Below are positions 1 to 51,600 of a stretch of 64,000 nucleotides of DNA, piece by piece. The stretch spans positions 139,649 to 203,648 of the forward strand of contig CAZSGP010000005.1 of assembly GCA_964606485.1 (NCBI GenBank), given 5' to 3'. This stretch comes from an uncultured Planctomycetia bacterium (GTDB taxonomy: Bacteria; Omnitrophota; Gorgyraeia; 2-02-FULL-51-18). How positions within the stretch are numbered: the stretch's first letter is position 1; each line of letters opens with the position of its first letter. The notes under the pieces were generated by a model, which was not told the origin of the DNA, did no database searches, and saw only the letters and a program-made list of their open reading frames with translations. The translations under genes were made by a program, and so were the position numbers.

Positions 1-3000
1 TCCCTAATATGAGTTGGCCATCCTCATTAAAAGGTTGCGACGTTCGTATTCGTCTTTGTAATGACTTTTTTTGAGAATAGGTTTTCCGAAAGATGTCCTT
101 TCCAAAAAATGTTTCAAACTTCTCTTTTTCGGCGGTGGCTATGCTTTTAAGATCGCGCTCCAGGTTCCAAAAAACTTCTTTTGAAATTCCAACGGCACTC
201 GCGGACTCAGCCAAAGACATATCAAGAATGTTCCGATAAAGCCTTATTCTCTGCCCGGTTGTTGTCGTTTTTTCTAAAAGCTCCTCAAAAGGCATCCCGC
301 CATATTTAGAGGCCAGAACCGCCCATTGTGTGAACCGCAAATTCCTTTTTTTTGGGCCGCCTTTTTTTTCGTGTACCGCTACACAGTTGCCGGTTTGGAG
401 ACACACTTTAAAGCCAAGCGAGAGATCATTTTCATCGAGCGGATAAATCAATACCTCTTGATCTGTAAAATAACGGCCCAACCGATAACTTCTTCCCTCT
501 ACTAAAAAGCGCCCGGAAAGCCCTCGAGTCCTCACGTGAATCGGAAAGCTTTTCGCTTTAGGCTCTGCCGGCGGCTCAATGGGCATGTACTCCACCTTAA
601 AATATTGATTCACAGCACTTCGAATGTCGTCGGCAACCTTGACCGCGCGCCCGCTCTCAGCCTGCTCCCAGCGCTTAGGGCTAATTCCAAGCTTCTTGGA
701 AAATTCTGAAATCGACAGCGCTTCCGAAGCTCTCAATACAGCCAATCTTTTATGCGGCTCGACGGCTTCTGCCAATGCTTGGTCAAATGTTTTAGGGTGA
801 AAGGCCGCGTAATGCCTGCCTTCCGGCGTTAATTTGACTGAGTTTTTGTTTCTTCGAATAGTACCGATCCATTCTCCCCCAAGAAACACCTTTAAATTTG
901 AAGCGACTCTGACGAAAGTTCCAAAAAATTCCTTTCGTAGATAAATGTTCCGATCCCTAAATGAAAAATCTCCGTTTTTATTTACTTTTCTTTCAGCGGG
1001 CTGGCTTTGAAGTCTCGCGCCGTTCCTCCAAGCCAGTGTGGTTTTATTTTTTAGAGATGCGTCCAAGAAGGTGTCAACGCCTTCACTCTGAACACTGATT
1101 CGGTGACTGATTTCGCCGCTTGCCGCTTTGCGGCGGTGAAATTCGATTGCAAAACGCTGCCTTAGATTCCGCTCGTCATTTTCTACCGAGTTATAGGATT
1201 CATCCAAATAATCCACCTTGAATTGCAGATTCTTAGATTCAAATCCCTCTCTATTTAATTGATCGACGATGTATTCCACGTGTTCCCGAAGGCTATTTTT
1301 AGAGCCCTCGGCATCGATAAAAATATGCCCCAATCCAAAAGACACTTCCCCATTTTTTAGCGCTCTCACCGCCACGCCGGTGCAGGTGTTTAAAAAGTTC
1401 GTCTCCAATTTCACACCTGGAAACCGCCGCTCGCTAAAAAGCGCAAAATTAGGCGCTTTGACCTCAACCTCGTTGCCCAATCGAGTCACAGAAAAGGGGT
1501 ACTCCTCAAACTCGGCGGACGCCGGGAAAAGAAACACTCCCTCGGTTGTGGGAGTTACAAGACTTGGCTCATAATTTATATCATCGCGAGACTTGGCTAA
1601 ACGCGCGGCATCGGGAAGCGCCTTCGCCTCTTTCATAAAATCGGCATTCGAAATATTTTCAAGCGTACGCATGGAATGCGCAGAGCCGAGACCCGGAATC
1701 ATCGTCAACTTTTGGCCGAGCAGAATTTTTTCATAACGTTTAAGATTCGTTTCTTGCAAAACCTGCGGCGTTACGACAATGTACGAAATATTTTTCTTTC
1801 TCAGCAGTTCCTTTAGATTCTGCGTGTGGTAGCCCCCCGTAATCAAAACCGACAGCAACGGGTCCTGCCGGCGGTTGTCCGTTCGAAAACCACCTTCGGT
1901 GTTTTCGAGACGGACACCTACCGCCGTCACCCGTTGCTTTTCGATTTGACTCAGCATATTCTCTACAAATTTCTCATCGCGCAACTTCGTGAGCTTATAA
2001 AAATCTTCTGCGTTTTGAATTGCCGCCTCATAGTCGTCTTTTAAAAATAAAGCGTTCTCTGCCGGTAAGCTAAACTCCATTAACTTCTGATTTAAAAAGC
2101 CGGTTAAATACCGGATGTCATGTGACTTTGTATCAACGCAGAAACGCTTGAAGTCACGCGCTGAGAGAGAAAGATCCAAAAGATGTTTCAGCGTGCAAAG
2201 CGCGAGATCCGTCTCGATCAAGACGCGTTCATCACGCGATGCGGCAAGCTTTTCAAATAACTCTTGCTCCAAAAGACCTTGTTCTTCCAAAATTTTTCCT
2301 CCATCCATCCGTCTTAGTTTCCGATGTGCTAATCGAGGTTCACTTTTTATGAGCTTTTCAAAGTTTTGAAGATGGGGGTAAGAAAGCAGAGAGACCCCGT
2401 TATCTTGGGCACACAGGATGAGACTCTCCAAGTATGCGCTCGCTTTTAAATCACCTCTAGCGCACTGCTCTTTTTTTTCATCTAACTCCGAAAGTTTTGG
2501 ATTATAAATTCGCTTTTTTAGACTGCGCGCCGTTAAAAGTGCGCGATCGAGATATTCTTTAAACTCTTGCCGCTTGCTCGCCGCACGGCGGTAAATCTTT
2601 AAAGACTGCTCGTACAATGCTCGGTCTTCCACTCCCCACAGTGGAAAGGTCCGGTCGGAAGTGAGCTGAAGATATTCTTCGCCGTGAAGCACGCCGTTCT
2701 TAAGAAATTTTTCAGCGAACCGCTCTAAGTCTCTTTGATTTTTTTGAGTTCTCAGAAAGGAGAGGGAGCTCTCCCCAAATCCCCCTTCAACAAAAATTGG
2801 AGATTTAGAATATTTATTTAAAATGATTTCGAGCGTTTTGGATAAATTTTTCTGTGCAGAGGGGTTAGCGTGTGCGTCTTGAATCAGTATGACAGTTGGG
2901 CCATTCGGCGCGCTCCAGGATTCACCGGTTTCAGCCACTGATTTCGGAAATTTAAGCCCAGACGCCACTGATCTAAATGACAGAAACTCCTGGGACTTTA

Positions 3001-3088
3001 TTTCAGAATCCGCGAAGCAAAAGGGCTCTGAAATAAGGCCCAAAATAAGCGCTAGCGAAACTATTTTTATTGGATATTTAAACTTCAT
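1..3088 (-). CDS. Giant secreted multidomain protein, partial (C-terminus runs off window start). N-terminal module paralogous to the N-terminus of the 4818-aa protein at 42674..57130, with HTH(XRE)-like modules further C-terminal.
   Basis: Hand translation of the minus strand from the ATG at 3088-3086 gives MKFKYPIKIVSLALILGLISEPFCFADSE (signal peptide), then VILIQDAHANPSAQKNLSKTLEIIL...FVEGG. This aligns with IIHIQDAHTNVSAQKNISAILENL...FLEGG of the 4818-aa protein. The frame was checked codon by codon and is open in 3088-3050, 1981-1826, 1051-1010, 781-661 and 301-2. No other ORF of 60 aa or more is reported on the minus strand for 1-3100. It is absent from the ORF track presumably because there is no stop codon inside the window. 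It contains one NGARLQS motif and XRE-like stretches such as LSISEFSKKLGISPKRWEQAESGR. Confidence 0.7.
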   Translation of the reverse strand, partial: MKFKYPIKIVSLALILGLISEPFCFADSEIKSQEFLSFRSVASGLKFPKSVAETGESWSAPNGPTVILIQDAHANPSAQKNLSKTLEIILNKYSKSPIFVEGGFGESSLSFLRTQKNQRDLERFAEKFLKNGVLHGEEYLQLTSDRTFPLWGVEDRALYEQSLKIYRRAASKRQEFKEYLDRALLTARSLKKRIYNPKLSELDEKKEQCARGDLKASAYLESLILCAQDNGVSLLSYPHLQNFEKLIKSEPRLAHRKLRRMDGGKILEEQGLLEQELFEKLAASRDERVLIETDLALCTLKHLLDLSLSARDFKRFCVDTKSHDIRYLTGFLNQKLMEFSLPAENALFLKDDYEAAIQNAEDFYKLTKLRDEKFVENMLSQIEKQRVTAVGVRLENTEGGFRTDNRRQDPLLSVLITGGYHTQNLKELLRKKNISYIVVTPQVLQETNLKRYEKILLGQKLTMIPGLGSAHSMRTLENISNADFMKEAKALPDAARLAKSRDDINYEPSLVTPTTEGVFLFPASAEFEEYPFSVTRLGNEVEVKAPNFALFSERRFPGVKLETNFLNTCTGVAVRALKNGEVSFGLGHIFIDAEGSKNSLREHVEYIVDQLNREGFESKNLQFKVDYLDESYNSVENDERNLRQRFAIEFHRRKAASGEISHRISVQSEGVDTFLDASLKNKTTLAWRNGARLQSQPAERKVNKNGDFSFRDRNIYLRKEFFGTFVRVASNLKVFLGGEWIGTIRRNKNSVKLTPEGRHYAAFHPKTFDQALAEAVEPHKRLAVLRASEALSISEFSKKLGISPKRWEQAESGRAVKVADDIRSAVNQYFKVEYMPIEPPAEPKAKSFPIHVRTRGLSGRFLVEGRSYRLGRYFTDQEVLIYPLDENDLSLGFKVCLQTGNCVAVHEKKGGPKKRNLRFTQWAVLASKYGGMPFEELLEKTTTTGQRIRLYRNILDMSLAESASAVGISKEVFWNLERDLKSIATAEKEKFETFFGKDIFRKTYSQKKSLQRRIRTSQPFNEDGQLILG
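1854..1938. repeat. 85-bp near-palindromic hairpin element, copy 1 of 3, inserted in-frame inside the gene A coding sequence
   Basis: agcaacgggtcctgccggcggttgtccgttcgaaaaccaccttcggtgttttcgagacggacacctaccgccgtcacccgttgct. The core is near-identical to copies at 31328..31412 (inverted) and 40247..40331. It has perfect 10-bp terminal inverted complementarity and a UUCG tetraloop centre. On the minus strand it translates in-frame as [26 protein letters not shown] with no stop. Confidence 0.8.
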
Positions 3089-24630: not shown

Positions 24631-26379
24631 ATGACTCTAAAGTTCGCTTCTAAAGCCTTCTTACTCGCTTTTATCATGAACCTGGGCATCTTATACAGCG
24701 CTCACGCTGACACCGCTGTCAGCGACGACACTCAAAACCAGATTGTTTCGCAGTCTGAAAACTTGCGCAAAGAAATTCAGAGAGAAAAGTTCAAGCCCAC
24801 CGAAAAACCGGAAATCGTGGTTGATGAAAAAACTGAAACTCCCCCCGGCGAGGAAGGCCCTGAATTTTTAGTCAAAAAAATCAATATAGAAGGCTCAACT
24901 CTTTTCAAGGAGTCTGATTTTTCAGAATATTTAAAAGAGTATGAAGGCCAAAAGGTTTCTTTTGGAAAACTCAGAAAATTAGTCCAACTCGTCACCAATC
25001 ATTACCGCTCTCGCGGGTATCTCACAAGCCGAGCTTATATCCCCCCTCAAAAAATGGACAATGAAATCGTCACCCTAAAAATTATAGAGGGCAAAGTCGA
25101 TAAAGTTCTGGTTGAGGGTAACAAATATTTTAGCAGTCAAACTTACACGAACGCGATGAAGCTCAATAAAAGCAACATTTTCCGCTACCAAGATTTAGAG
25201 TCCAGTCTTTACGAAATTAATCAGAAGCCCGATCGCAAAGCCAAAGCCTATCTGCTTGCCGGAAAAGAAATTACAACGTCCGACATTTTGCTGAAAGTCG
25301 AAGAAACCAATCCCTTTCACGCCGCGTACGAGTACAACAATCACGGAACAAGCCTCACCCATCACGGCCGCCATGTGACACATGTGACGCATAATAATTT
25401 GACAAATCATGGCGATATTTTTGATGGTACTTATACACTAGCTAGTGAAGGCGCATTCGGCGGCGGCGCTTTTAATTATTCCTTTCCGCTGGAATCCACC
25501 GGCACAACGCTGGGACTTTCGGGAAGCTATGTGAATAGCTTGATCGTGAAACATTTAAAACCATTTGAAATTAAGGGAGACTCGAAATCCTTAACGCCTG
25601 AAATTACGCAAAGCATTATTCGTAAACCGGCGACGCAGTTTGACTGGAACTTAGCCTTTGAAATGAAGGACTCTAAAACACTGGTAAACGACGTTAAGGT
25701 AAATTTTGACCGCATGCGCGTGTTAAGAACGGGGCCGAGACTTTATTTGCAAGATGGGTCGGGGCGCAGCATTATTTCTTCGGATTTTCATTGGGGCATT
25801 CCCGATATTTTGGGCGGCTCTGAGGCGCGTGATTCAAATGCGAGCCGCTTGCAAACCGGCGGAGATTTCGTTTCTTTCTCGGGGTATCTTGCTCGCATTC
25901 ACCGTTTGCCGCAGTCTACCTTTCTAATTGCACGCGTTGGCGGACAATACTCGCCAGACTCACTCACTTCTCTGGAGCAGTACCGCCTTGGCGGTTACTC
26001 CACGGTTCGCGGGTATTCAGAATCTGATTCTTCGGGCGACTATGGCTACAACTTTAGCAGTGAGTGGCATGTTCCGTTCACGACAGCAATGCCGTATATG
26101 CCAAAAGTGTTTAAAGAATCCACCATTCCCTTCACGGACAAAAACTGGTTTAGCAGTACGCGCTTTGTACTATTTCTAGATGGTGGAAAATCTTATCTTC
26201 AAGATCGCGCAACCTCCACCACAGTCAAAGACAAATTTCTTTTAGGAACGGGTTTTGGTGTGCGTATGGAACTCGATAAAACATTTTCTCTTCAGTGCGA
26301 TCTAGGATTTGCCATCGGCGATGACCCGACGGCACACTCCGATCACCAACTGCATTTATCCGTTAAGGCTGGCTTCTAA
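24631..26379 (+). CDS. Two-partner secretion outer-membrane transporter (TpsB; ShlB/FhaC/HecB family)
   Basis: 582 aa, with a signal peptide, a POTRA region (KINIEGSTLF...LTSRAYIPPQ...IIEGKVDKVLVEGN) and a C-terminal beta-barrel. The RBS is aaggataaatagg. Confidence 0.8.
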   Translation: MTLKFASKAFLLAFIMNLGILYSAHADTAVSDDTQNQIVSQSENLRKEIQREKFKPTEKPEIVVDEKTETPPGEEGPEFLVKKINIEGSTLFKESDFSEYLKEYEGQKVSFGKLRKLVQLVTNHYRSRGYLTSRAYIPPQKMDNEIVTLKIIEGKVDKVLVEGNKYFSSQTYTNAMKLNKSNIFRYQDLESSLYEINQKPDRKAKAYLLAGKEITTSDILLKVEETNPFHAAYEYNNHGTSLTHHGRHVTHVTHNNLTNHGDIFDGTYTLASEGAFGGGAFNYSFPLESTGTTLGLSGSYVNSLIVKHLKPFEIKGDSKSLTPEITQSIIRKPATQFDWNLAFEMKDSKTLVNDVKVNFDRMRVLRTGPRLYLQDGSGRSIISSDFHWGIPDILGGSEARDSNASRLQTGGDFVSFSGYLARIHRLPQSTFLIARVGGQYSPDSLTSLEQYRLGGYSTVRGYSESDSSGDYGYNFSSEWHVPFTTAMPYMPKVFKESTIPFTDKNWFSSTRFVLFLDGGKSYLQDRATSTTVKDKFLLGTGFGVRMELDKTFSLQCDLGFAIGDDPTAHSDHQLHLSVKAGF

Positions 26380-26381
26380 AC

Positions 26382-29300
26382 TTATTTCCGCATTGGTTTT
26401 TCTGGCGAGATAATCGCAACCGCAGTCGCTCCGGGACCTCCGGCAATCGTATCCGTGAGTTTAGCATTTCCGTTTTGATCCATCTTCACAAGTGACACGT
26501 CTCCAGAAAGCGCATTGGCGATATAAATTTTTGCGGTGTCGACATCTTCGATCGCGCTCATTCCCGAAGGACGTTTCCCTACTGGAATCTTAGCTTTTTC
26601 GACTTTCAACTGAGTGTCGATTACTGAAAGCGTGTCTTCTGCGCGGTTCGTGACAAACAGATACTGATGAATCGCCTGAATTTTAAATGGCCCGGAACCT
26701 GACTTCAAGCGATGCTTCTCATTGAAATTGTTGGAATCAAAAACAATAATTTCGTTGTTGGCTGCGTCCGCTACGTACAATTCTTTAAACTCTTCGGAGA
26801 GCGCCACGCCGTAAGGCGCATCTCCGGCTTTGAGTTTGCTGATTTCTTTGCCGCTTTGAGCGTCCATCACCGACACCGTCCCATCGAGGGTGTTGGAAAT
26901 AATGAGCTTTCCGTCATCCGCCACGATCACCTGGGAGGGATTAGAACCGGTGTTCATGGTTTTCGTAACTTCGCCCGTCTTCACATCAATTTCCTTAACC
27001 GTGTCTTCGACAGAATTTGTCACATAAATTTTTTCTTGGTCCTTGCTCAGCGCAAGCGATGAATTGACACCGGACAATCCTTTTCCAGTGTCGATCGGAT
27101 CTTGCATTTCATTTTGAGACGCGTCGATCGGCGTGATATTTCCAGCAGCCGGAAACGCTGCGTACACGGTGTCGCCTTTTTTATTGGCCACCACATCGGT
27201 CGGCGTTTCACCGAGAGGAATTTCTTTGAGCGTATTGTGAACCGTGCCGCGCACGACTTTCAAGCCATCGGCCGTCGTCACATAAACCGAACGGACCTGT
27301 GCTTTGACACGCCCATAGGCGTCGATGCGCCCAACATCGCCTTGATACAGTAAATTTTCTTTGGGATCCGTTTTGCCGTCGATAGATTTTTTGTACGCCA
27401 CAACTCCCTCGGCCACGTAAACCGTGGATTCGGTGTCGGCAATCGCTTTCAAATCTTTTTTCTTCTTCGAATCGTTGTCGGAACTGGAATTCTTAGGTTT
27501 TGTGGATCCGCCGCCACCTCCACCAAACCCTAAAGAAGCGGCAGAGATAACCGGCAAAGTATTCACGGCTGCGATTCCCGCCTGGACGGCGTTAGCATTA
27601 TTGGCGGCCTCGATAGCGGGGCCGATATTGGAATTGCCAGTTCCGTAAGTGATAGGACCAGGACCTGGGGTAAAGTAAGCGCCCGTGTTATTAAAATCAC
27701 TCACCACCACGTTAGACCAATTCACGTTGCCCGCTGACAAACCTGAAAAATTAAATTGCGCACCGCCACCCGTAATCGTCACGGCCCCTGCACCTAAATT
27801 CGTTCCAGTAAGCGTAAAAGTATTCGGAGACAAAACGGAATAAGTTTCCGTCGCAAATTGAAGTGTCTTGCCGGCGGTCACACATTTCAAATCCCAAAAA
27901 TCAACGCCTTGGCTACCTGTGATAAAGCTCGTTCCGGCGGCGTTGTTAAATTCTATAATTCCGTTTCGATGATTAAGCGTGCCGCTAACGGAAATTAAAT
28001 TTCCACTAATAAGAAGCGTTTCAGCCGCAGCCGTATTGGCATCGTTGTCACCCGGAGCGTTAAATACAGGAGAATCCGCTCCGCCTCCGAGCGTGAAATT
28101 TCCTCCGACGGTTATATTATTCGCGCCGGATGTAAATATGAGCCCTGTGCCTGTAACCGATAAATCGCCTGTCATGGTAATGGCGTTATTGGCCGTAAAA
28201 GTCGGGGTCGCCGCGCCAAAGCCAGATTTACGAATCGTTAGATTTCCCACACCGGTGATACTTCTAAGTGTCGCATTTCCAGCAGATTGGAGAGCCAGAT
28301 TGAAGCCGGCCCCGACGATCGAAGAACCAGCGCCCATCGTAAATGATCCTGTGCCATTCCCATCGTCATCCGAGTTAAATTCCGTGTCACCCGTCAAGGT
28401 TAGAACTTGCGCCGCGTTGACAATAACATCGACGTTATCGGCCGTGATTCCTGTATAGTTTCCGGTGTTGAGATTGACAGCTCCATCAAGATTGTCTAAA
28501 GAAGCATGACCGACCCAATAATTTCCACCCAAGTTAAAAGCCGCGCCTCGTTCATAAAACTCATCTGTCTTTATCGTTCCTAGACTCTGAATACCCGTGT
28601 TCGAAACAAATTCAATTCGCCCATCCCGATCCACCGCACGCGACGCCTCCACAATTCCCGAATTGTTCACCAAGTGCGTGAACACATCATCTAAAGTTTT
28701 GAGGGATAGAATCACTTTCCCACCGTTGGCAATTAAGGAGCCTGTATTTTCAAGCGGTATTTCAGAACCCTGCGGCAAACTGATGCCCCGGTCCACCACA
28801 AGATTGATCAGATTATTCTCATCAAAGGAAATGGTTTGCTTTTCTCCCACTCCCAAAACCACCGAACCTGCATGTGCCGTGAGCACGCCCTCGTTTTTTA
28901 CCGACTCCGCGAGGAGCGCAATGTGTCCGCCATCTGCCGCAGTGATATCGGCTTGATTTAGAATGGCTCCGAAATTGGATCCATTTATTTTTTCGAACTG
29001 GAGTTCGCCGTTCATATAAAGAGAGCTCTGAATGTCGAGCGTAGAAGCAATCAAGCTACCCACTTGAACATTTGCAGAATCGTGAAAAGTGATGCCGTTT
29101 GAATTGACGAGAATGAGTTGGCCATTCGAAAAAAGAGACCCAAAAATATCAGAGCCTGAGCCTCCGTTAACACGACCCAAAAAATTTGCCCCATTAAAAC
29201 GCACGGTTTCATTGGCAGCTATATTAAAGGAATCAAAATTGACCACGGCGTGGTCATTGGTCGCATTGATGATTAAGGTATTGGCTTCGGACGTGCTATC

Positions 29301-29417
29301 GAAGGTAATATCTGATGATTCACCGGTATATCCTTGGGGCATTGCCCAAGATAGCGGAGTACCGATCTGCGCTCCAAAAAAACTAACCAGCATAAAAACA
29401 CTAATTAACTTTTTCAT
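26382..29417 (-). CDS. TpsA-type exoprotein: TPS (haemagglutination-activity) domain, Gly-rich linker and C-terminal YVTN-type beta-propeller
   Basis: 1011 aa, with a signal peptide and TPS-domain motifs (NATNDHAVVNFDSFNIAANETVRF, LVNSNGITF). It has a GGGGGG linker and repeated ...YVTNSVEDTVKEIDVKTGEV... units at the C-terminus. Confidence 0.7.
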   Translation of the reverse strand: MKKLISVFMLVSFFGAQIGTPLSWAMPQGYTGESSDITFDSTSEANTLIINATNDHAVVNFDSFNIAANETVRFNGANFLGRVNGGSGSDIFGSLFSNGQLILVNSNGITFHDSANVQVGSLIASTLDIQSSLYMNGELQFEKINGSNFGAILNQADITAADGGHIALLAESVKNEGVLTAHAGSVVLGVGEKQTISFDENNLINLVVDRGISLPQGSEIPLENTGSLIANGGKVILSLKTLDDVFTHLVNNSGIVEASRAVDRDGRIEFVSNTGIQSLGTIKTDEFYERGAAFNLGGNYWVGHASLDNLDGAVNLNTGNYTGITADNVDVIVNAAQVLTLTGDTEFNSDDDGNGTGSFTMGAGSSIVGAGFNLALQSAGNATLRSITGVGNLTIRKSGFGAATPTFTANNAITMTGDLSVTGTGLIFTSGANNITVGGNFTLGGGADSPVFNAPGDNDANTAAAETLLISGNLISVSGTLNHRNGIIEFNNAAGTSFITGSQGVDFWDLKCVTAGKTLQFATETYSVLSPNTFTLTGTNLGAGAVTITGGGAQFNFSGLSAGNVNWSNVVVSDFNNTGAYFTPGPGPITYGTGNSNIGPAIEAANNANAVQAGIAAVNTLPVISAASLGFGGGGGGSTKPKNSSSDNDSKKKKDLKAIADTESTVYVAEGVVAYKKSIDGKTDPKENLLYQGDVGRIDAYGRVKAQVRSVYVTTADGLKVVRGTVHNTLKEIPLGETPTDVVANKKGDTVYAAFPAAGNITPIDASQNEMQDPIDTGKGLSGVNSSLALSKDQEKIYVTNSVEDTVKEIDVKTGEVTKTMNTGSNPSQVIVADDGKLIISNTLDGTVSVMDAQSGKEISKLKAGDAPYGVALSEEFKELYVADAANNEIIVFDSNNFNEKHRLKSGSGPFKIQAIHQYLFVTNRAEDTLSVIDTQLKVEKAKIPVGKRPSGMSAIEDVDTAKIYIANALSGDVSLVKMDQNGNAKLTDTIAGGPGATAVAIISPEKPMRK

Positions 29418-30847: not shown

Positions 30848-31306
30848 CTACTCGCGTTTGCCGAGTAGCCCTTTTAACTCTTTCATAAACTGATTGATGT
30901 CTTTGAACTGCCGGTAAACACTGGCAAACCGCACGTAGGCGACTTCGTCGATTTTATGAAGATGGTCCATGACGAGCTCCCCTATCTCCTTCACTTTCAC
31001 TTCCTTATCGAAACTTTTCTGAAGCTCTTTTTCGACTTTATCCACCACGGATTCGATTTTCTCCATGCTGACCGGGCGTTTTTCACAGGCTTTCACAATC
31101 CCGGAGATAATTTTATTGCGGTCAAAAGACTCGCGGCGGCCGTCTTTTTTGACGACCATTATCGGAACTTCTTCGATGTACTCGTAGGTGGTGAAGCGGC
31201 GTTTGCACTTTTCACATTCGCGACGGCGGCGGACGCTCTTGTCCTCGTTAGAGGAGCGGGAGTCAATCACCCGGTCTTCGGTATGAGCGCAGAAAGGGCA
31301 TTTCAT
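30848..31306 (-). CDS. nrdR: Transcriptional repressor NrdR
   Basis: 152 aa. [42 protein letters not shown] (zinc ribbon) plus an ATP-cone. Confidence 0.9.
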
Positions 31307-31327: not shown

Positions 31328-31412
31328 GCCGATGGGTGACGGCGGTAGGCGTCCGTCTCGAAAACACCGAAGGTGGCTTTCGAACGGACAACCGCCGGCA
31401 GGACCCGTCGGC
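31328..31412. repeat. 85-bp palindromic hairpin element, copy 2 (inverted relative to copies 1 and 3), between the glyA stop and the nrdR start
   Basis: gccgatgggtgacggcggtaggcgtccgtctcgaaaacaccgaaggtggctttcgaacggacaaccgccggcaggacccgtcggc. It is the reverse complement of the 40247..40331 core. It begins 2 nt after the glyA stop codon. Confidence 0.8.
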
Positions 31413-31414
31413 TG

Positions 31415-32686
31415 TTACGCATGTACGGCCTCAGATTTGTGAGCTAGTAGCTCAGGATAAAGCGGAAACTTTTTCGTCAGCGCCTCGACTTTGTGACGAA
31501 CTTTGGTAATCTCCTCTTCGGAGTGAATATTTTTTAAGACTTCATCAATCAGCGCGCCAATTTCCGTCATTTCTTTTTCTTTCATTCCCCGAGTCGTCGC
31601 CGCGGGCGTTCCGATACGAATCCCGCCCGCTTTCATGGGGCTTTGCGTGTCAAACGGAATGGCATTTTTGTTCACCGTGATCTTTGCGCGATCGAGTGCC
31701 TCGGAACAATCTTTCCCGGTTAATCCTTTTTTATTCACGTCTAATAGCATCAAATGATTATCCGTACCGCCTGAAACCAAACGGTGACCGCGCTTTGTCA
31801 ATTCTGCAGCTAAGGCAGCTGCGTTTTTAATCACCTGGGACTGATAGACTTTAAACGACGGCTCCAAGGCTTCTTTCAAAGCCACAGCCTTGCCTGCGAT
31901 CACGTGCATCAGAGGTCCGCCCTGAAAAAATGGGAACACTTCAGAGTCAATTTTCTTGGCAAAATCAGCCTTGCACAAAATGAGTCCCCCGCGAGGGCCG
32001 CGAAGCGTTTTGTGAGTGGTCGTCGTTACAAACTCGGCATAAGGAACGGGGTTTGGGTGAAGGCCCGCTGCGACAAGACCTGCGATGTGAGCCATATCGA
32101 CGAAAAGAATCGCTCCCACTTTGTCACAGATTTTACGAAAACGTGCAAAATCAATTATCCGCGGATAGGCAGACGCACCCGCGATAATCATTTTAGGCTT
32201 ATGCTCATTGGCGAGCGTTTCAATCTCGTCATAATCAATGCGTTCATCTTGAGGGCTCACGCCATACGGAATAATCTTAAAAAATTTACCTGAAAAATTC
32301 ATAGGATGACCATGTGTCAGATGTCCGCCATGCGAGAGATTCATGGCAAGCACCGTGTCTCCGGGTTCAAGCACCGAAAAATAGACTGCCGCGTTGGCTT
32401 GAGAACCAGAGTGCGGTTGAACGTTCACGTGCTCAGCTCCAAAAAGTTTCTTCGCACGTTCGATCGCAAGGTTTTCGGCTTGGTCTACAAATTCGCATCC
32501 GCCATACCAACGTTTGGCGGGGTAACCTTCGGCGTATTTGTTTGTCATCACCGAGCCTACCGCTTCCATCACGGCAAGACTCGTAAAATTTTCACTCGCG
32601 ATCAGTTCAATATTTTCGTTTTGACGGTGCGCTTCTTTTGAAATCGATTCAAAAATTTCAGGATCTGTTTTTGAGAGAATGCTCAT
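31415..32686 (-). CDS. glyA: Serine hydroxymethyltransferase
   Basis: PLP-dependent SHMT motifs ([32 protein letters not shown]). The start is placed at MSILSK, giving an ATGA overlap with the rpiB stop. Confidence 0.9.
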
Positions 32687-40246: not shown

Positions 40247-40331
40247 GCCAACGGGTCCTGCCGGCGGTTGTCCGTTCGAAAGCCACCTTCGGTGTTTTCG
40301 AGACGGACGCCTACCGCCGTCACCCGTTGGC
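40247..40331. repeat. 85-bp palindromic hairpin element, copy 3, between purQ and purL, overlapping the purQ stop codon
   Basis: gccaacgggtcctgccggcggttgtccgttcgaaagccaccttcggtgttttcgagacggacgcctaccgccgtcacccgttggc. The right arm encodes the last three codons (ANG) plus the stop of purQ. The purL SD follows the left arm directly. Confidence 0.8.
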
Positions 40332-40979
40332 TAAAATCGATTCCAATATTTTTAAGCCGTCTGTCGACCCCAGTTCCGTTTCCGAAGCGCGCTCCGGGTG
40401 CGGCATCAGTCCGAACACATTACGGTTCTTATTGCAGATTCCCGCAATGTTTTCAAGCGACCCGTTGGGGTTTTCGACGTATTTCACGACGATCTGGTCG
40501 TTAACTTTTAACTCTTCAATGGTTTTGGCGTCGGCAAAATAATTTCCCTCGCCGTGCGCAATCGGAATTCTGAGCACCTCACCTTTTTTAGACTTCTTAG
40601 TAAAGGGAGTGTTCGTGGTCTCGACTTTTAAGTCGACATACTTGCAAATGAACTGGAGTGACTCGTTGCGCAACATGGCCCCTGGCAAAAGACCGGACTC
40701 GAGGAGAATTTGAAAGCCGTTGCAAATGCCGATCACAAGCTTTCCTTTTTCGGCGTGCTTCATCACGCCGTCCATCACCGGCGAAAAACGCGCAATTGAA
40801 CCCGTGCGCAAATAATCGCCATAGCTAAACCCGCCCGGCAAAACGATGCAGTCGTATTTCGTCACATCGCGTTCTTTGTGCCAGACAAAATCTGTCTCTT
40901 GATGCATCACGTGTTTTAAAACGTGGTAGCAATCGTAGTCGCAATTAGAACCTGGGAAAACAACAACGCCGAATTTCAT
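40320..40979 (-). CDS. purQ: Phosphoribosylformylglycinamidine synthase I (glutaminase subunit)
   Basis: 219 aa. [16 protein letters not shown], with the class I glutamine amidotransferase triad. Confidence 0.9.
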
Positions 40980-42673: not shown

Positions 42674-45600
42674 TTAGGCCGCTACCTGTGTGGTGTGAAG
42701 CGCGAGAATACTTAAGATGAGCCGGGTATTAAAGACCTTTTCAGGTTCGAGTAACCTAAACCGGTTACCCGAAAAGTGAACGTCCACTAGCTTCTGGAGC
42801 AGTTCTGGAAGCGATTTTGGATCTAAATTTTTAGACAGCGCAATCACGGTCAAAAGATAAAATGCTGAGGAGGACCCATCCACCTCACCGCGCTCGACTT
42901 CGGCGTAAGGCGCCGCACTTGAAAATTGAAGCGCCTTGGCGCGATCCGGAAAATACAACGTTCCCACATTTAATTTTTCGTTTTCTAGTGAATTTAGATC
43001 GGCACTAGGCTTAAACGACAGTTTCACTCCGCTCTGGGATAATTTCTGCAAACGATTTTGAATGGATTCGGCTTGATCACTCGACGCTTCACCGTACAGC
43101 ACGAGTTCGAGCAAGCGACCTTTGACGTGATCAAACTCAAGCGACGAATTGAGAATACTGGTTAAGCTTTCCAAAGCCTTTTGTGTTTTTAAATTTCCAT
43201 TCGCATCCAAGAAAAGTTCCATCGGGACGGGGATTGTTCCCGTTTGACCCGGAGCGACTTTCGCGGAAATAGAATCAGCGACCGCTTTCACGAATGCTTT
43301 TGATTCCTCTATACTTAAATCTTCCAATTGAGCTTCAATAGAATTCTTCGCCTGCGAAGAAAGGCGCTGAGCCTCTGCTAAATCCGCCACTCCGCTTTCA
43401 AGAACCGGATAATTTTCGAGTTTAAAATTAGAATTTATTTCTGAAAGCGGCGCCGTGCGAATCTCAACCGCTTCGGCAGACTTAAGCGTCACGAGCGTTA
43501 CAAAAGCTCCTGTTAAAAGAGGAAAGAGTTTGGGGAATGCTCCGGCCTTGTGAGAGGCGGCAATGCGCGCGCCTGAAATTTTAAGCGGCATCACACTCAG
43601 CTCGGCATGATTGGATAACAAGTTTAACTGAAATTTAGTTTGGCCCCCTTCTTCCCGTAGAAATTTTTCTAGCCTTTTTTCGTAACCTTTTTTTGTGGGC
43701 TCGGTAATTTTGAGCTCTAGTTTTGTACCGGGATTCCTTTGGCTTGTGATGGTAATCGTGTGCACGATCCCGCTTTGAACCAGTCCACGAAGCTCGCTCA
43801 ACGTTTGGTCGAGGGTTAGATTGCGTTTTTCGGAAAGACGGGCGGCATTTGGGGTGTCTATAAGATTTCGATATTCATTACCAACTTTTTGCCCCTGATT
43901 GATCGTTCCATTGGTCGATGCGTTATCCCTAATCTGCCAAACTCCATTGATGAAGGATAAATGCACATGCTCTCCAGAAACACGAGGGTTATCATCCGTC
44001 ACAATATCGTTGTCAAAACCACGGCCAATCTTATAGACCGCCTGCTTAAACCCATCAAGATTATAAAATTTCTGATCTTTAGTTCTCCATAAAAATAATC
44101 TATATCCGTAAATTTGGTAGATGAAAAATTCGTTGGCCGCCGCCAGCGTGAAAGCCGGACGAGACGTCGAAGCAACAGGAACCGTTTGCGCTGGAGGGGC
44201 GGCAATCCGCATCGTTGACTCAGGTACAGGCCCAAGCCATTGTAGCGTTGTCTCCTTAGAAGCATCTTGCGCTAAAAAATTAAGGCTACAGTTGCCGTTT
44301 CCATTGTTGTGCACACTCACCTGGAATCCGTATCGAAATGGTTTTCCGAGTTCAAACGCTAAAGATGGAGCCGTCGGCCTAAAAGCGCCTTTATCATAAT
44401 CTTGAATATAAGCGTGTATGCCGGCACTGTCTTGTTTATACCAAATTTTATAAACAGCCGATCCAACCCGCACCCAAACGTCTCCCATAAATGGCGCATT
44501 CTGAATAGATAGAGGCTTGACACTGCGCGCCGGACTCTTCAACTCGCGGATCCTGCCAAAGTATTCTTTAAGCATTTGCCGAGTTTTGATGTCCTCCATG
44601 TCCACCAACTCTTCTAATTTTTCTTTAGCCTGAATAACCCTAATTTCATCTGGAGTCATCGCGACCCCAATAAACGATTTTTTTGTTTCAAAAAAATGAA
44701 CTGCGTTTAATACATCTTGCGCGGAGTATTGAAGTCCAAAAAGACTGGCGCGAATTTCAGCTGGTTTTAAAGGCGGATCGATTAATCGCAGGACACGCGC
44801 GCAAAGATGTGGGTCTGTTTCATCAAGACCCTGCGTTTTGAAAACAGTTAGAATCGTGGCCATGGCAGGCGCATTGCGCATAACATTGGTGACACCTCTT
44901 AAACCTGCCGATCTAATAAGCTCTTCCCGTATTTTTTCAAATTTATTCGCGGGATCCAAAATTTCCTGTTGGGTTTTTGGTCTATGCGTTAAAAGTGTTG
45001 AGGCAATCACTTTGAGTCGCCTATCCAGCTCTGCTGGTGCCAAATCAGCCAACCGCGATCCTTTAACCTTGTCGCGGGTAAAGCCCGTTTTACTTTGATT
45101 ATCTTTTTTGAATTCGATCATTTCTTCATATGTCTTAAGACCGGGCTTAAGGATAATTTTGTCTCGTCGTTCATTCGGAATCACAAAAATATCCCCATCG
45201 AGAATATGCTGTGAAAGTCCAGGAACTGTGAGCAACTCAATCGGATTTGCGACAACAGACTGATCAATGGCAAAACGAATGTAATAGTCCTTATTGGTTT
45301 TTCTTAAATCCTTCACCAATTCGACATATGCGAGTGGGGTTCGCGAAACACTGTAAAGCTTTCCTTCAAAAAATTGGAGCAAACCCATCTCCAAATCTCT
45401 TTGGACTTCCTCTGAGCTGATTAAAAATCCAGGAGCTCCTTCAATCTCAAAGCGCCTTAGGTCACCGGCCCATTTTTTAAATGCTTCTATTTCAATTTTT
45501 ATTTGTTTGGGTTTCGTTGCGGATTGAACGTGAAGCGCATAATCCTCTGGACTCATACCCGAAAAACGGAAATCCGCGTTGGAGCTCCCTACTACAAACC

Positions 45601-48600
45601 CTCTTAAGATGTCTTTGGCCGCTTGTACATAATTAACGCTAAGATCTGCATCGGGTATTTTAACGGGCTTGCCTTGATGGTAACGCACCCTATTGTCGAT
45701 AAAAAAATCGGAGTTAGCTTTTCTTAATTGTCTGAGATAGGTTTCATAGTCATTCGCAGATTTTCCGATGAGGAACAATGATCCATCGGAATCAATATCC
45801 AAAATTCCTCTTTCTAAGTCTCTAAAGGCCTCGGTGTAACTGGGTTTTACACTCCCTTTATAATCCACAATCTTTTCCACGAAGCCGTAGCGAACCGAAG
45901 AGCTGCTCCAATTTCCGCCCAAAGAATAATAATGTAAAAAGCAAGCGGCCGCCGACTCTCGTTGCTCGTTTTGCAAAAGCGAAGCTTTTAGCTTCAAGCT
46001 CATTCCCCTGGGACCGCTGGAATAATACTCTAACTCTGCATTCGTACCGACGACACGCAAACGCGCCTGAGGATGTAAGAGGTAACACCGGCCTTTTGCA
46101 AAGTACCTGAATACGGGCCACCTAAAAATATTTTTTTCTTTCGGGTTTGTTATGCTTGAGTCATGCAACTCATAAAATATTTTTTCGGTGTTGTAATCTG
46201 CTTCCGCTGAAAGCCGCTCTTGTGCGCCTGGTTTGAACGGCTCTCCAATAATGGCGCATTCTGCCGCATTTCTTAGTGCGATAAAAGCCCTGTGTGCCTT
46301 GCGGTTGGACGCTCTCTCGCGCACTCCCCGATTGGGCTCAGTAAAAGATTCAGGGTCCTGATAAACATCCCAATGAAAACCGTTGCTAAAAAAAACTTTT
46401 CTTTTGATCTTGCCTTTTGACACACACTCAAATTCCAATGCGATAGGATTGGAGGGCGAGCCATCCCCCACATAAGCTTTGCCGGACAGGACATTAAGCA
46501 CGAATTTGGTCGGAAAATTTCCCGCCTTTCCTCTGGGTGCGACGAGCAAATCACCCTTTTTATCTGCCGTCAGCCTGAAATTGTCTCGGATGGCTTTTTC
46601 ATTATTAAGCTCAATAACTAGGTCGCCGAGCGCTTTGCCATTTAAAATTTTGGTGTGGTCCGCCGGCTCCTCGTCGGTGTCAATGGAGTCTGACACACTA
46701 AGCAATTCTTCCCGCATTGTAAAAGCGCTTTCCATGCCAGGTAAAGGGCGCCATCCCTCAAACGCAACCTGAGAATAAGTCCACTTAGTTTGCTCAATCT
46801 CCAAAATATCGAAGCTATCTCCATTAATACTCAGCGTTCCATTTTTTTCGTTAAACAAGTAATCCGCTTGTATCTGCTGATTATCGGAAACGAGTGCTCC
46901 TAGATCGGTTTGATTCGCCTGTACAAAATTCAATAAAAGCCCATTGTCGTGAGGTTTCACACTGATAGGACAAATAAGCAACCTTTCGATTTTGCGTCCG
47001 CTTTTTTTTCCTTCCAATGTTATCCAAATAAGATTTTTCCCATCTGACGCTCTCACCCAGGATGAGTAAATCGTTGAGCTGGGAAGAGAAGTTAGGCGAG
47101 CCCCCTGTGGGGGAGTTGTTTTAACCTTACGTGCGTCGCTCGCTTTTTGAAGCACGCTGAGCTCGAACATCAGCTTAAAAAATACCGGTCGCACCAAATC
47201 GGCATTTTGACCCTTATACTTTTTTTTCTCCATACGTACTTTATCTCTGCGAATGAGAAGGGTTACGAGTTCTTTTTGATTTTTGCAATCCAGAACGCGC
47301 ATCAACTCCGACAAATCACTCGCAGAAACTCCATCTAAGCCCTTCGCTAATTCGTCTATTTTCCAGGGCGTGAAAGCTTCAATTTCACTTTTTTCTTTTT
47401 TCGTAAAGATACCGGGGTTTACCATCCAACGCGCTTTTTTATCGTGCTGGTCCTCTTCAAACCGCTTGATTTCGTCGGTCGAATAAAAAGATGAGTTTTT
47501 GTGCGCCGCGGCTAGAACAATGAGCCCTGTCTTCAAAACCGAGAGGGCATGCTCTTGGTTAATGAGTCCGCCCAAAACATATTGCTCAATAATTTTTTCA
47601 TAATATTCTGTAGCGTTGCTGTCCTTTAAGCGTCGCTGCATGGTTTCTTCGTGTGCTTTGACAGTTTCCAGCACACCGGGAATTTTTAGAAAATTTTTTA
47701 GGTCTGCCTCGGTTACACGGTAGCCCCCTAGTAAATATTGGTTCAGCAGTTCGATAGCGTTGGGCAAATAATCTGTTTTGCGCACTCCCTTTAAATCACT
47801 CATCAAATGTTCGGGGTTATAGTCCGGATGCATGAAGAGAAGAAGGGTGTGAAGAAGCAGCCACCGCCTGCCCGATGCTGTTTTTCCATCCCAGGCCATA
47901 GCATCCACGGCAATCTTGGCATACTTGGCTCTCCGATCGGGCTCTAATTCAACGTAACTCTGGTAAGCATTGGATTGCAGCGTGAGAATACTGATCTTAT
48001 CTTTGGCTTGATTTCCCACGAGCGCCATTTCAACGCTAGAAGCCGCATAAAACGCGTTAGGATTTAACGTAAAACCTTTCTTATCTTTAAGCGCTTGGAA
48101 AATCTTTCGCGTTAATTCGAGCGCAAAACCATCGTCTATCCGGTTGTCTACTCGAATGAGCTCTTCGTTGTCAAAATTGAACACTATTTGCCTGGGCCAA
48201 TTCTGGTTGTCATCAGAATCGTCCGCGGATCTACCCTTCACGTAAAGACGACGCGAGGCGGCCGTCACTAAAAGAGTGATATAGTCTTCCAAGTCGCTGC
48301 CCTTCATAAGAATTAAGCGCGCGCCTTGAGTATGCGCCAAAATATCCTTCACCGCGTTTTCGCGTTCTTTGGGATTGTCTCTTAAAGAAGAAATGTAAGA
48401 TTCGATGGATGAGCGATTTGATTCGGAAAAACTGGCTAAACGAGCGCCTTTTACAGCTTTAAGACGCTCTGTTTTCTCGGACGATGCTAATGCAAGGAGT
48501 AAAAATGATTTTTCGAGGGAGTTCTGCTGAATATCACGAAAGATCTCCGAGGATTCAAGCATTTGATGGGCATGATTAATCTCATCTAGCCCCGAAAGCA

Positions 48601-51600
48601 ATCTAAATGAAAGAAAAACTAATTGGCGTTGAAAAGTCGATTTGTAATCAATATTGTTATAGGCGGGACTAGCATTCACATCCATCCAGGCTTCGTCAAA
48701 AACATTCCAAGTAAAGCAGTCCATTTTAACAATGGCTTCTATCGCTGGGGCAGCATCTCCCGCTTTTAAATGATCAATTAAATATGCATGGTTACCGTAA
48801 CCTTGAATAAAATAATCCAGCCATTGGGCCAATTCCTTGACGCTGCCCATTTCAACGGCGGCCCATGTGTATATCGCCAAGGTTTTAGGATCTGTTTTAG
48901 AAATTTTCTCAAGCTCCTGCTTAATTTTTTTTACGCCTTCAAAATTACCACCGGATTTTGCCAAGGCCAATACATAAGTCGCTTGTACCGTCGGTTCCAA
49001 AGAACGGAATTCTTCATCCATCGTTAACTGCGCAAAGTACTTTTTTACTTTTTCTAAACTTGAGTCGCTTTGCACTGCGGCCAAAGTGAGTATCGATCGC
49101 TCAAGGACTTCGTTAGGAAAAAATTGATCATTTGAAATTACACGATAAATGTCTTCGACCCGCTTTTCAGCCTCTTCAATAGCTGTTTGTCTATTGGGAT
49201 CCAAATCTGTCCATTGAACAGAACTAGAAGAGTTATTGTCGGGCCTTAGTCTCCGTTGCTGCGGATAAGGAAAAAAATCTGGAATTTCGCCACGTTTAAT
49301 TTTTCTTTGGAGATTAATCCAATACCCGTAGCGAATGATATCGGGGTGTTCTTTGACAAAACTCGCACGGTACGCCATCGGAATATAATCAAGAAACCAC
49401 TTCGGGAAAAAATCCAACGAAACACCTTGGTCGACATCGCTAACAGCCGAAAAATATTCCCCCAAAGACATGCCCTCAGAGTCTGAGACGCGCGTAATTT
49501 TTGGGAGAAAATGCATGTCCTCCAAATTTTCAAGATCATCAAAATCGTACAAAACGACACGTCCAAAATGAGTCACTCCAAAATTTTTTGGAAGCGCGTC
49601 CATTACGAAAATTCCGGCAGCAGCTAAATCCTTCAAGCAATAACCCCATTCTAGGACAGCTGCTGTTTTCTTTTCTTCGGGAACATCGGGATTATCCAGA
49701 AAAACATCCAGCGGCACCAATTTACGCTGTGCAAAAACCTCCTTGAAGATAACCTTTCCGTCCTTAAGGATTATGTTGGATGGCTCCCGCTCACCTTGGG
49801 GTGTCGCGTGCTCAATCAACTCCTTTAAAAGAGCTGGGTCAAAGTCAGATTCTTTAAATTCTAGAACTTGAAGCGTTATCGGATTTAATGCGCGACCAAC
49901 ACGGTCCATCCCCTGCACTTTTCGGTACATGCGCTTTATAAATTCTCGGATATTAACGCCCCCCTCCTCTCGCTGAAGCAGGGATTTCTTTGATGTGCTC
50001 TCTCGCGCATTTTTGAAAACATACCCAAAAGTAGGAAGCACAAAAGTATCAAGAGCCATCCCCTTCACGCCGGTCGCCCACTGAAATTTCTCACCTGGAT
50101 TAGTCTCTAAATGATTCCGCAAATTATGGACTAACTCCAATTTAGCCGGATGAGCGAAACCAACCGCAGAATAAATGGATGAGGGGGATTTATTTGGAAT
50201 AATCGAATGGAGGAAATCCAATAATTCATGATAATAATTCATTCCGGTAACATGAAAATCAATTCGCGTGTAGCCAAAGATATTGCTAACGTCCGCCTCA
50301 TTCGTCAGAACCGCATCAACTGCAATCCCCTTTTCAGTCTTTACCAGCGCGATAACGAAAGGGACTATTTTTTTGTCTGTCCGGATGCGTCCTACTAAGT
50401 AAGCACCTTTGTTGCGAAAAAAAATCTTTTTCCATATTTCAATCGAACGAATGGTCCTAAAAACCTTTTCCTCTTGATAGCGGCGAATATCTTTCTCCAA
50501 CATTTCGGCGGATAATTTCGAGTCTCGCTCCAAGTTTTCATACGGCGCTTCCACAAATCCTGCATCTTTTAGAATTCTTGCGATCGTCTCCGGACTCAAG
50601 TCTTTGTAGACTCGATAATAACGGTGAATAACCCCTTCGCTGGCGTACTCAATAGGCGTATTGACGTCCTTAAAAATTCTCCGCTCTATGGAGTTAAAGA
50701 AAATGATAGCCAAATCGGAATCCGGTCGTTCGCCTAACCATAAACTATAAATTTTTTGTAACGCTTCCCACGATTTTTTGTCTCTTAAACGATCACCCAT
50801 TAGGGGGGCAATTTCCGCAATCACTTTTGTCAACGCATCACGGTATAAATTGAGTCGCTCTTTGGCATTTTTTTGGCCCTCTTCCCAGAGTGATAGCTCA
50901 AATACTCTCTGAGCTCTTGCTGTAATTTCGGCATATCTGGATTGGTACTCATCGAAAGCCTTTAAAATCAGACGAACGATATGATCCGGTGAGACATTCG
51001 AGCGCTGATCGGAGACATAAATTGGCTTTGAAATACTTGATGATTCATCTCCGTTACCTTGAAATTCAGGCCGTTCCGCCAACCGCGCTCCACTCTTGGC
51101 TCTCCAATACCCCATCACTACCGTGGTCATGCCGTCTTTTTTGGGATAATCATTTTGGAAGCCGTCGACGGATTCGAAACCCGCCTCGTTTAAAATTCTT
51201 AGATAATTTTCTTTTTCGATCAGATACTGGTCCGAATAAAGATGGGACATGAAATACGCGGTCTCGAGTGTAGAACCTAAGTTACGCGCCGCAATTTGAG
51301 GGTTAATAGAAAGAAGATCTATTGTCAGAAGTCCGAACCGAGATGAAAGACTAGCCCACGATTTAAAGTGCTCGTACAAGTTTTGCTCCAACACGCCATT
51401 TGGAATAATTCGACCGCGATGCGTGTAAATGGCTCTTGAATCGGTGCGACGCCTTGCCGCGGCCTTGCGGTCTTTGGGTATCACAAACGGACGGTTATGG
51501 TCTAAAAAAGAGCGGACGTGTAAAAGATCCTGGGCTTTTGCGTCGAAAGGAGCTAGAAGCTCGTTCAAATTTTTTTCATAGAGAGCAGGGTCGTTGATAT

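Follow-up and report, generated by a model that had tools for sequence, protein, structure and literature searches.

How does a palindromic repeat that also lies between genes come to be translated within an intact gene? This question is raised by gene A, the 5' part of which lies at the left end of a 64,000-nucleotide (nt) stretch of DNA, hereafter the window (assembly GCA_964606485.1, contig CAZSGP010000005.1, positions 139,649 to 203,648 of the forward strand), from an uncultured bacterium of the Omnitrophota, which are noted for giant genes. A hairpin element, referred to as copy 1, is located inside the open reading frame (ORF) of gene A. With a probability of roughly 0.7, we consider copy 1 to be a dispersed palindrome, similar to REPINs and to MITEs (transposable elements of the miniature inverted-repeat type), which is translated in frame and tolerated in a permissive loop of a 3006-amino acid (aa) protein. 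A preliminary description of the locus had reached a similar view, which is right in kind but too narrow.

A translated palindrome and its two intergenic copies

The features of the window and the related linkers are listed in Table 1. The product of gene A is 100% identical to P0138 (P numbers are our handles for the proteins compared) over the first 520 residues queried, the annotated start of P0138 being located 8 codons further upstream, at about 3112. The minus-strand ORF runs uninterrupted across copy 1, as the preliminary description had stated in noting a read-through without stop or frameshift. The sequence LSVLITGGYH follows immediately after the element, with the invariant residues G418, G419, and H421 still in frame, so that conserved residues are kept in frame on both sides of the repeat. 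The palindrome is located where it had first been placed, but its size had to be revised: the stretch common to all three window copies comprises 81 nt, equivalent to 27 codons, rather than 85 nt and 26 codons, and the longer version includes pairs present in copy 1 only. As the length of this core is a multiple of three, most insertions into genes would stay readable. Since, in addition, five of the six reading frames through the element are free of stop codons, the 81 nt (3 × 27) are translated as a loop of 27 residues.

Table 1 Features of the window and linkers of related giant proteins
Feature	Position	Strand	Description
Gene A, 5' part	1-3088	minus	At least 1029 aa in the window, running off its left end; full protein P0138, 3006 aa
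Copy 1, core of the palindromic repeat	1856-1936	minus	81 nt, 27 codons in frame (window ORF, aa 385-411; P0138, aa 393-419)
Copy 1, earlier 85-nt extent	1854-1938	minus	Core and two stem-extending base pairs (AG/CT), copy 1 only
Copy 2	31330-31410	plus	In reverse orientation with respect to transcription; occupies the glyA-nrdR gap (glyA stop at 31415-31417, nrdR start at 31306)
Copy 3	40249-40329	minus	Between purQ and purL
Gene B	42674-57130	minus	4818-aa paralogue; N-terminal module of ~500 aa with 30% identity to gene A
Gene B, homologous linker	55750-55817	minus	Perfect 18-bp inverted repeat and adjacent hairpin
P0140 linker			27/27 element residues identical to gene A
P0139 linker			QRVAAVGVRLENTEGGFRTDNR followed by an additional QAACLPAGRDPL; right arm of the element contains an added stretch
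P0001 linker			KRVTAVGIRL-GEPRLNASES-ERTTAGRTR; left arm like gene A, centre different, right arm in another frame
P0148 linker			Only QQRVAAVG before AILITGGYH; left-arm remnant, near-normal linker length

The arms of the element are 72% complementary over 32 nt, to which an inner stem is added. The strong RNA hairpin expected in the mRNA was recovered by folding positions 1846-1946 in the mRNA sense (-59.9 kcal/mol, z = -8.0), none of 200 shuffled sequences being equally stable, and the 81-nt core alone folds at -45 to -49 kcal/mol. This linker is the most stable RNA structure within the available part of gene A. With a GC content of 62%, compared with 45% in gene A and 46.7% in the window, the element looks compositionally foreign. 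Without it, the sequence at 1856-1936 would join ATCGAAAAG directly to CTGTCGGTT.

The two-arm pattern is expected by chance 0.00 times in the window and is observed three times. The three copies are 97-98% identical within 64 kb, and two of them are intergenic, in short gaps of housekeeping operons; the element is thus found in several copies, both between and within genes. Two of the 81 positions distinguish copy 1 from copy 3, each by a synonymous transition at a third codon position. Copy 2 begins one base past the glyA stop codon and ends 24 nt ahead of nrdR. Compared with copy 3, its outer stem exhibits one compensatory replacement of an A-T pair by G-C, as well as a single G.T wobble. 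The stop codon of purQ (TGA, 40320-40322) is located inside copy 3, and the ATG of purL is 14 nt beyond the core and 11 nt beyond the GC-extended stem. Two of the three copies therefore adjoin stop codons. At 40320-40332, the repeat provides the last three codons of purQ (...ILANG) together with its stop codon. The core is flanked by AG and CT in copy 1 and by GC and GC in copies 2 and 3; as GC/GC is itself palindromic, it lengthens the stem. Searched with a covariance model derived from these three copies, the window yielded no fourth one. In the mechanism that we propose, copy 1 would belong to a GC-rich, non-coding family of palindromic repeats of ~81-87 bp, with no transposase nearby.

Two other identities were considered for the repeat. 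A known RNA family was rejected, as no Rfam family matched at the gathering threshold, the only sub-threshold hits being generic hairpins (E = 0.07). A terminator scan called none of the copies, and no T-run follows any copy in either orientation; without a U-tract after the hairpin, the element is not an intrinsic terminator. When the six frames of the element were translated, concatenated, and used as a protein query, nothing was returned at E ≤ 10, which is a weak negative, as the index also missed gene A itself.

A permissive loop in a family of giant proteins

The N-terminus of gene A resembles a signal peptide and is followed by a conserved module of ~480 aa, with an HTH_31 domain at aa 781-823. 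The N-terminal module (window positions 1529-3088) has no Pfam match. Its conserved motifs include IQDAH, FVEGG, and ITGG[YF]H. An exhaustive HMMER search yielded 7096 relatives of the module, which are fused to unrelated giant bodies, and those homologues that are named, as well as the relatives of the IspH encoded in the window, are annotated as Candidatus Omnitrophica or Omnitrophota. The best Foldseek match in the PDB, 3b55/2rad, is not significant (E = 0.07); these entries were deposited as a succinoglycan biosynthesis protein, which we take to be erythromycin-esterase-like.

Linker lengths were surveyed in the best 150 HMMER homologues and in 17 first hits, from the FYxLTxxRD motif to ITGGYH. 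A minimal span of 36 residues is observed in 104 of the 150 homologues, whereas about 30 are expanded, with spans of up to 103 residues. The AlphaFold model of residues 1-520, based on an alignment of 19 sequences, has a mean predicted local distance difference test score (pLDDT) of 78.8 and a predicted template modelling score of 0.72, and is confident on both flanks of the insertion site. In this model, the insert forms the end of a helix (353-395) and a loop with a pLDDT below 50 at 399-407, after which a strand follows (412-418). The insert is thus predicted to lie in a surface loop and to leave the fold undisrupted. Taken together, the minimal linker of most homologues and the modelled loop indicate that the segment is extra with respect to the ground state of the family and is located in a permissive loop. 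This agrees with the initial proposal that a dispersed, intergenic-type repeat had been inserted into a variable linker. The tolerance of the element is explained by the nature of this loop, which is a hypervariable, permissive site of the module. The element would accordingly be located in the loop between the long helix and the ITGG[YF]H beta-strand, where it would yield a hydrophilic, largely disordered loop of 27 residues. The IspH encoded in the window is 100% identical to P0018, and in the loci of its relatives (L009-L011, 76% identical) no gene A orthologue was found in the IspH synteny, hence no orthologue with an empty site.

The preliminary description had taken the insertion to be a single event private to gene A. 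This is not the case, as the same element is present at the same site in P0140, P0139, and P0001, a left-arm remnant is present in P0148, and a related element is found in P0172. P0138 and P0148 are encoded on a contig of 206,337 bp, which is also the length of the contig with P0018, and P0139, P0140, and P0001 are singletons on contigs of 546, 401, and 366 kb. P0139, P0140, and P0001 are probably paralogues in the genome of gene A. P0138, P0139, P0140, P0001, and P0148 share the N-terminal module only, their C-terminal bodies being unrelated. Over conserved columns, gene A shares 46-49% of residues with P0139, P0140, and P0148, whose mutual identity is 57-61%. A neighbour-joining tree, computed without bootstrap, groups gene A with these three proteins, (A,(P0139,P0140,P0148)), and places P0001 elsewhere within a clade of 14 members. 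All 27 residues of the element are identical in gene A and P0140, compared with 30 of 58 residues in the 60 residues upstream and 37 of the 47 conserved residues downstream, and only the two synonymous transitions separate copy 1 from the intergenic copy 3. Such nucleotide uniformity in diverged paralogues requires recent insertion, gene conversion, or selection at the level of DNA or RNA.

What is conserved in these proteins is the DNA and not the peptide. The right arm, which reads FRTDNRRQDP in gene A, reads ERTTAGRTR in P0001, i.e., frame 2 of the same DNA, which shows that the nucleotide sequence is shared rather than the peptide. The covariance model, built from the window copies only, was also applied to seven loci of other Omnitrophota (120 kb). 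The single match is the linker of P0172 (L014, 11563-11671; 20.5 bits, E = 0.021), which has the arms CGGGTGACG and CGGCAGGACCCG in common with the element, set around a centre of greater length; its reading frame is 0 (AGDAGG...QAAGPAP). The arms occur in three different reading frames across these proteins. The pattern that would have identified an ancestral coding segment, namely its presence in all orthologues with conservation at the protein level, is therefore not observed, the arms of P0001 and P0172 being read in different frames. As the same DNA is read in three frames, the peptide is effectively arbitrary filler.

The linker also carries other palindromes. In the gene of P0221 (L015, GCA_945877765.1), a related repeat of ~82 nt (CACATGCGGGTGGCGCCGGAGGGGAGGCCTCCGC...) occurs twice, in opposite orientations and in frame both times, once before the first conserved strand (IQDAH) and once in the ITGGYH linker (L015, 10300-10420 and 11620-11700). 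A palindrome in P0006 (L013), ATTCCCGC-TTTC-GCGGGAAT, reads DSRFRGND. The peptides [SA]PRND, ATKASA, and GGEASA recur at several loops of family members. DSR[FL]RGND, IASS..SPRND, and LLRRYAPRND recur at differing loops in P0006, P0140 (aa ~107), and P0148 (aa ~248), and [SA]PRND sites are present in P0141, P0173, P0177, P0184, P0213, P0215, P0250, and P0268. Judging from their codons only, the [SA]PRND peptides look like translated small palindromes of the ...CTCGCAATGAC type. In-frame hairpins similar to repetitive extragenic palindromic (REP) sequences thus appear to be common in these giant proteins.

Gene B exhibits GAESATKASADSRYKNEP before ITGGFH, where gene A has the element. This linker had been called unrelated. 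It has indeed no significant similarity to the element, but it contains two strong hairpins, one of which includes the ITGG codons. The first is a perfect 18-bp inverted repeat (arms 55750-55767 and 55773-55790, with a 5-nt loop), the longest perfect inverted repeat of the window apart from the element; the second is a neighbouring hairpin at 55787-55817. In the 18-bp repeat, the distal arm codes for the conserved VIFITGG and the proximal arm for DSRYKNE of the linker, which means that the linker holds an inverted copy of the adjoining conserved coding sequence. The second hairpin, GGAGTCCGCC-N10-CGGCGGACTCC, encodes ESATKASAD. A fold of 111 nt at this place has -44.6 kcal/mol (z = -8.3). A decayed copy of the element was considered for this linker and rejected, given an alignment score of 16 against a null of 15 ± 2.2 and a covariance-model match with E = 1.2. 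ATKASA is found at the same site in P0159 and elsewhere in P0157, P0172, and P0185. Within its 4818 aa, gene B combines AprA-like methyltransferase, winged-helix, AceK regulatory and kinase, and FHA domains. The ORF upstream of it (57143-63973, 2276 aa) comprises PP-binding carrier and glycosyltransferase domains. Elsewhere, the window encodes a two-partner secretion pair, with a transporter of the ShlB/FhaC type (24631-26379, plus strand) together with a 1011-aa protein with a two-partner secretion (TPS) domain and a beta-propeller (26382-29417, minus strand).

Weighing the explanations

With regard to the history of the site, the element most likely entered an ancestor of the clade comprising gene A, P0139, P0140, and P0148, or spread among these genes by gene conversion. 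Conversion or a constraint at the nucleotide level would keep the intragenic element close to a genomic master sequence. P0148 would later have lost everything except the left arm, and the translated peptide would be neutral filler. The present distribution may reflect one old insertion that was kept uniform or repeated insertions.

Several observations weigh against the insertion of a dispersed palindrome. As the paralogues are only 46-61% identical, the nucleotide identity of 98% between copies 1 and 3 is more than an old insertion would lead one to expect, unless the sequence has been subject to conversion or to selection at the nucleotide level. One site is occupied four times, whereas no other site is occupied in about 440,000 residues of homologues, which is unlike the outcome of random insertion and filtering alone. 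Removal of the 81 nt would leave the linker of gene A 4 residues below the family norm. No clear or consistent target-site duplication surrounds the three window copies, and no match to a transposase or to a REP-associated tyrosine transposase (RAYT) was found among the 39 window ORFs of at least 150 aa, so that the mobility of the element is deduced from its dispersal only. Finally, exact two-arm scans of genome and metagenome contig collections returned only chance matches in GC-rich sequence, and those of viral contigs returned none.

The main rival reading is that the hairpin itself is selected inside these genes, for example as a translational pause before ITGGYH, as a site for RNase III or other processing, or as an identical 81-bp recombination node through which paralogues would exchange N-terminal modules and giant C-terminal bodies, with the intergenic copies exploiting the same RNA or DNA property. 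We regard this as unlikely, although a number of observations agree with it. The element is more conserved than its protein flanks (27/27 compared with 52-79%), and its arms are kept at the DNA level across frames and genomes in paralogues that share the N-terminal module only and have unrelated C-terminal bodies. Both synonymous changes of copy 1 turn a C.A mismatch into a U-A pair in the mRNA sense (-48.8 compared with -45.2 kcal/mol), copy 2 exhibits a compensatory pair change, and gene B has its perfect 18-bp stem at the same place. Folds of 120-nt windows along the genes speak instead for tolerated insertions. The linker of gene A ranked first or second in stability, as did those of gene B, P0172, and P0221. 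In contrast, two short-linker controls are unremarkable in the same folds (z = -0.1 and +0.9), which rules out a hairpin conserved in the mRNA of the whole family. As the expanded linkers are structured and the short-linker controls are not, the hairpins come with the insertions and do not reflect a family-wide requirement. The 104 of 150 homologues with a minimal linker have no room for a hairpin, and the palindromes of the expanded linkers are unrelated to each other, as would result from opportunistic insertion. The missing U-tract, which excludes an intrinsic terminator, and the missing Rfam match point in the same direction, and three DNA copies give covariation no statistical power.

A broader version of this idea, to which we would give similarly low odds, is that, in different paralogues and genomes, the loop before ITGG[YF]H is a recurrent landing pad for palindromes. 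Hairpin cassettes would then be kept at the nucleotide level as nodes of conversion or recombination, or as sites of mRNA pausing or processing, the peptide being a by-product. If this were true, such nodes would re-assort the conserved secretion/processing module with unrelated giant C-terminal bodies.

Much less probable is an ancestral coding origin in this paralogue clade, be it of the whole segment or at a minimum of its left arm QRV[TA]AVG, the palindrome having formed in situ by inverted duplication before being dispersed to intergenic sites. P0148, with ...EQQRVAAVG-AILITGGYH, has a near-normal linker and no right arm, and the 18-bp repeat of gene B demonstrates that adjoining coding sequence can give rise to an inverted copy at this site. 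However, P0148 is nested within the element-bearing clade of the neighbour-joining tree and has a T-to-A change in common with P0139, for which reason loss is more parsimonious than ancestry; its linker looks as if part of the palindrome had been deleted secondarily. P0172, which belongs to another genome, carries the two arms read in a different frame, and its GC content (62% compared with 45% in the gene) makes the element look foreign in composition.

An artefact, i.e., a chimeric assembly at the repeat or a pseudogene whose frame survived by chance, is highly improbable: an 81-bp repeat across paralogues could mislead a short-read assembler in a metagenome-assembled genome such as this one, but the frame and the conserved residues are kept on both sides in an ORF of 3006 aa, and the same in-frame arrangement is observed independently in four proteins on four contigs, as well as in other assemblies (L014, L015).

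Relation to known repeats and significance

The insertion of a dispersed palindrome has precedents in other bacteria. Rickettsia palindromic elements (RPEs; Ogata et al. 2000) are described in two later papers as dispersed palindromes of about 100-150 nt which are located between genes and, in frame, within intact genes (PMC10969869, PMC3733652). RPEs resemble the present element in that, at a predicted surface loop, they lengthen the protein by a few dozen residues and in that related genes can share a site; the open host frame and the presence of copies both between and within genes are also common to the two. They differ in their hosts (Alphaproteobacteria compared with Omnitrophota) and in their length (about 100-150 nt compared with 81 nt). 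In addition, the peptide is not conserved as such here, and the insertions accumulate in a single loop of a module with multiple paralogues. The element may thus be classed with RPEs by function, a relationship in sequence not being expected.

Intragenic REP dimers encode 20-30 aa and are most numerous in Opitutus terrae, a bacterium of the Planctomycetes-Verrucomicrobia-Chlamydiae (PVC) group (PMC3733652, PMC10969869). REP sequences and REPINs are mobilised by RAYT transposases, and GTAG-tagged REP dimers occur inside genes (PMC3733652, PMC3116915, PMC3337134). Like a REPIN, the element consists of two diverged inverted halves which form one long imperfect hairpin, and it is found within operons, directly after stop codons and with no target-site duplication. 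One of the arms has a GTAG within its unpaired AGG bulge (GGCGGTAGGCGTCC), GTTG being present in the other, and the tag is internal to the hairpin, whereas it is terminal in REPs. The stems also greatly exceed the 5-13 bp that are given for GTAG REPs, and no RAYT was found among the 39 window ORFs. Intragenic ERIC, BOX, and Correia/NEMIS elements and cyanobacterial MITEs likewise make in-frame fusions (PMC10969869). Like MITEs, the element is small and non-autonomous, has inverted ends, and can be translated across when located in a gene. In contrast to MITEs, it exhibits no consistent target-site duplication, and the whole element is a hairpin rather than a spacer between terminal inverted repeats. 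A full-text literature search found no paper on palindromic repeat elements in Omnitrophota, and the text of a preprint on giant genes (10.1101/2023.11.21.568195) contains neither 'palindrom' nor 'hairpin'.

These results extend to the Omnitrophota the phenomenon known from Rickettsia, in which selfish palindromic DNA is translated within intact genes. For annotation, they mean that some of the linkers of giant proteins are derived from repeats. Where paralogues share identical 81-bp cassettes, assembly can be confused and conversion between the genes can be promoted. The insertion of such palindromes provides a concrete route for the gain of sequence in the loops of giant proteins and, if the recurrence at one specific site is functional, it bears on how modular giant genes are assembled.

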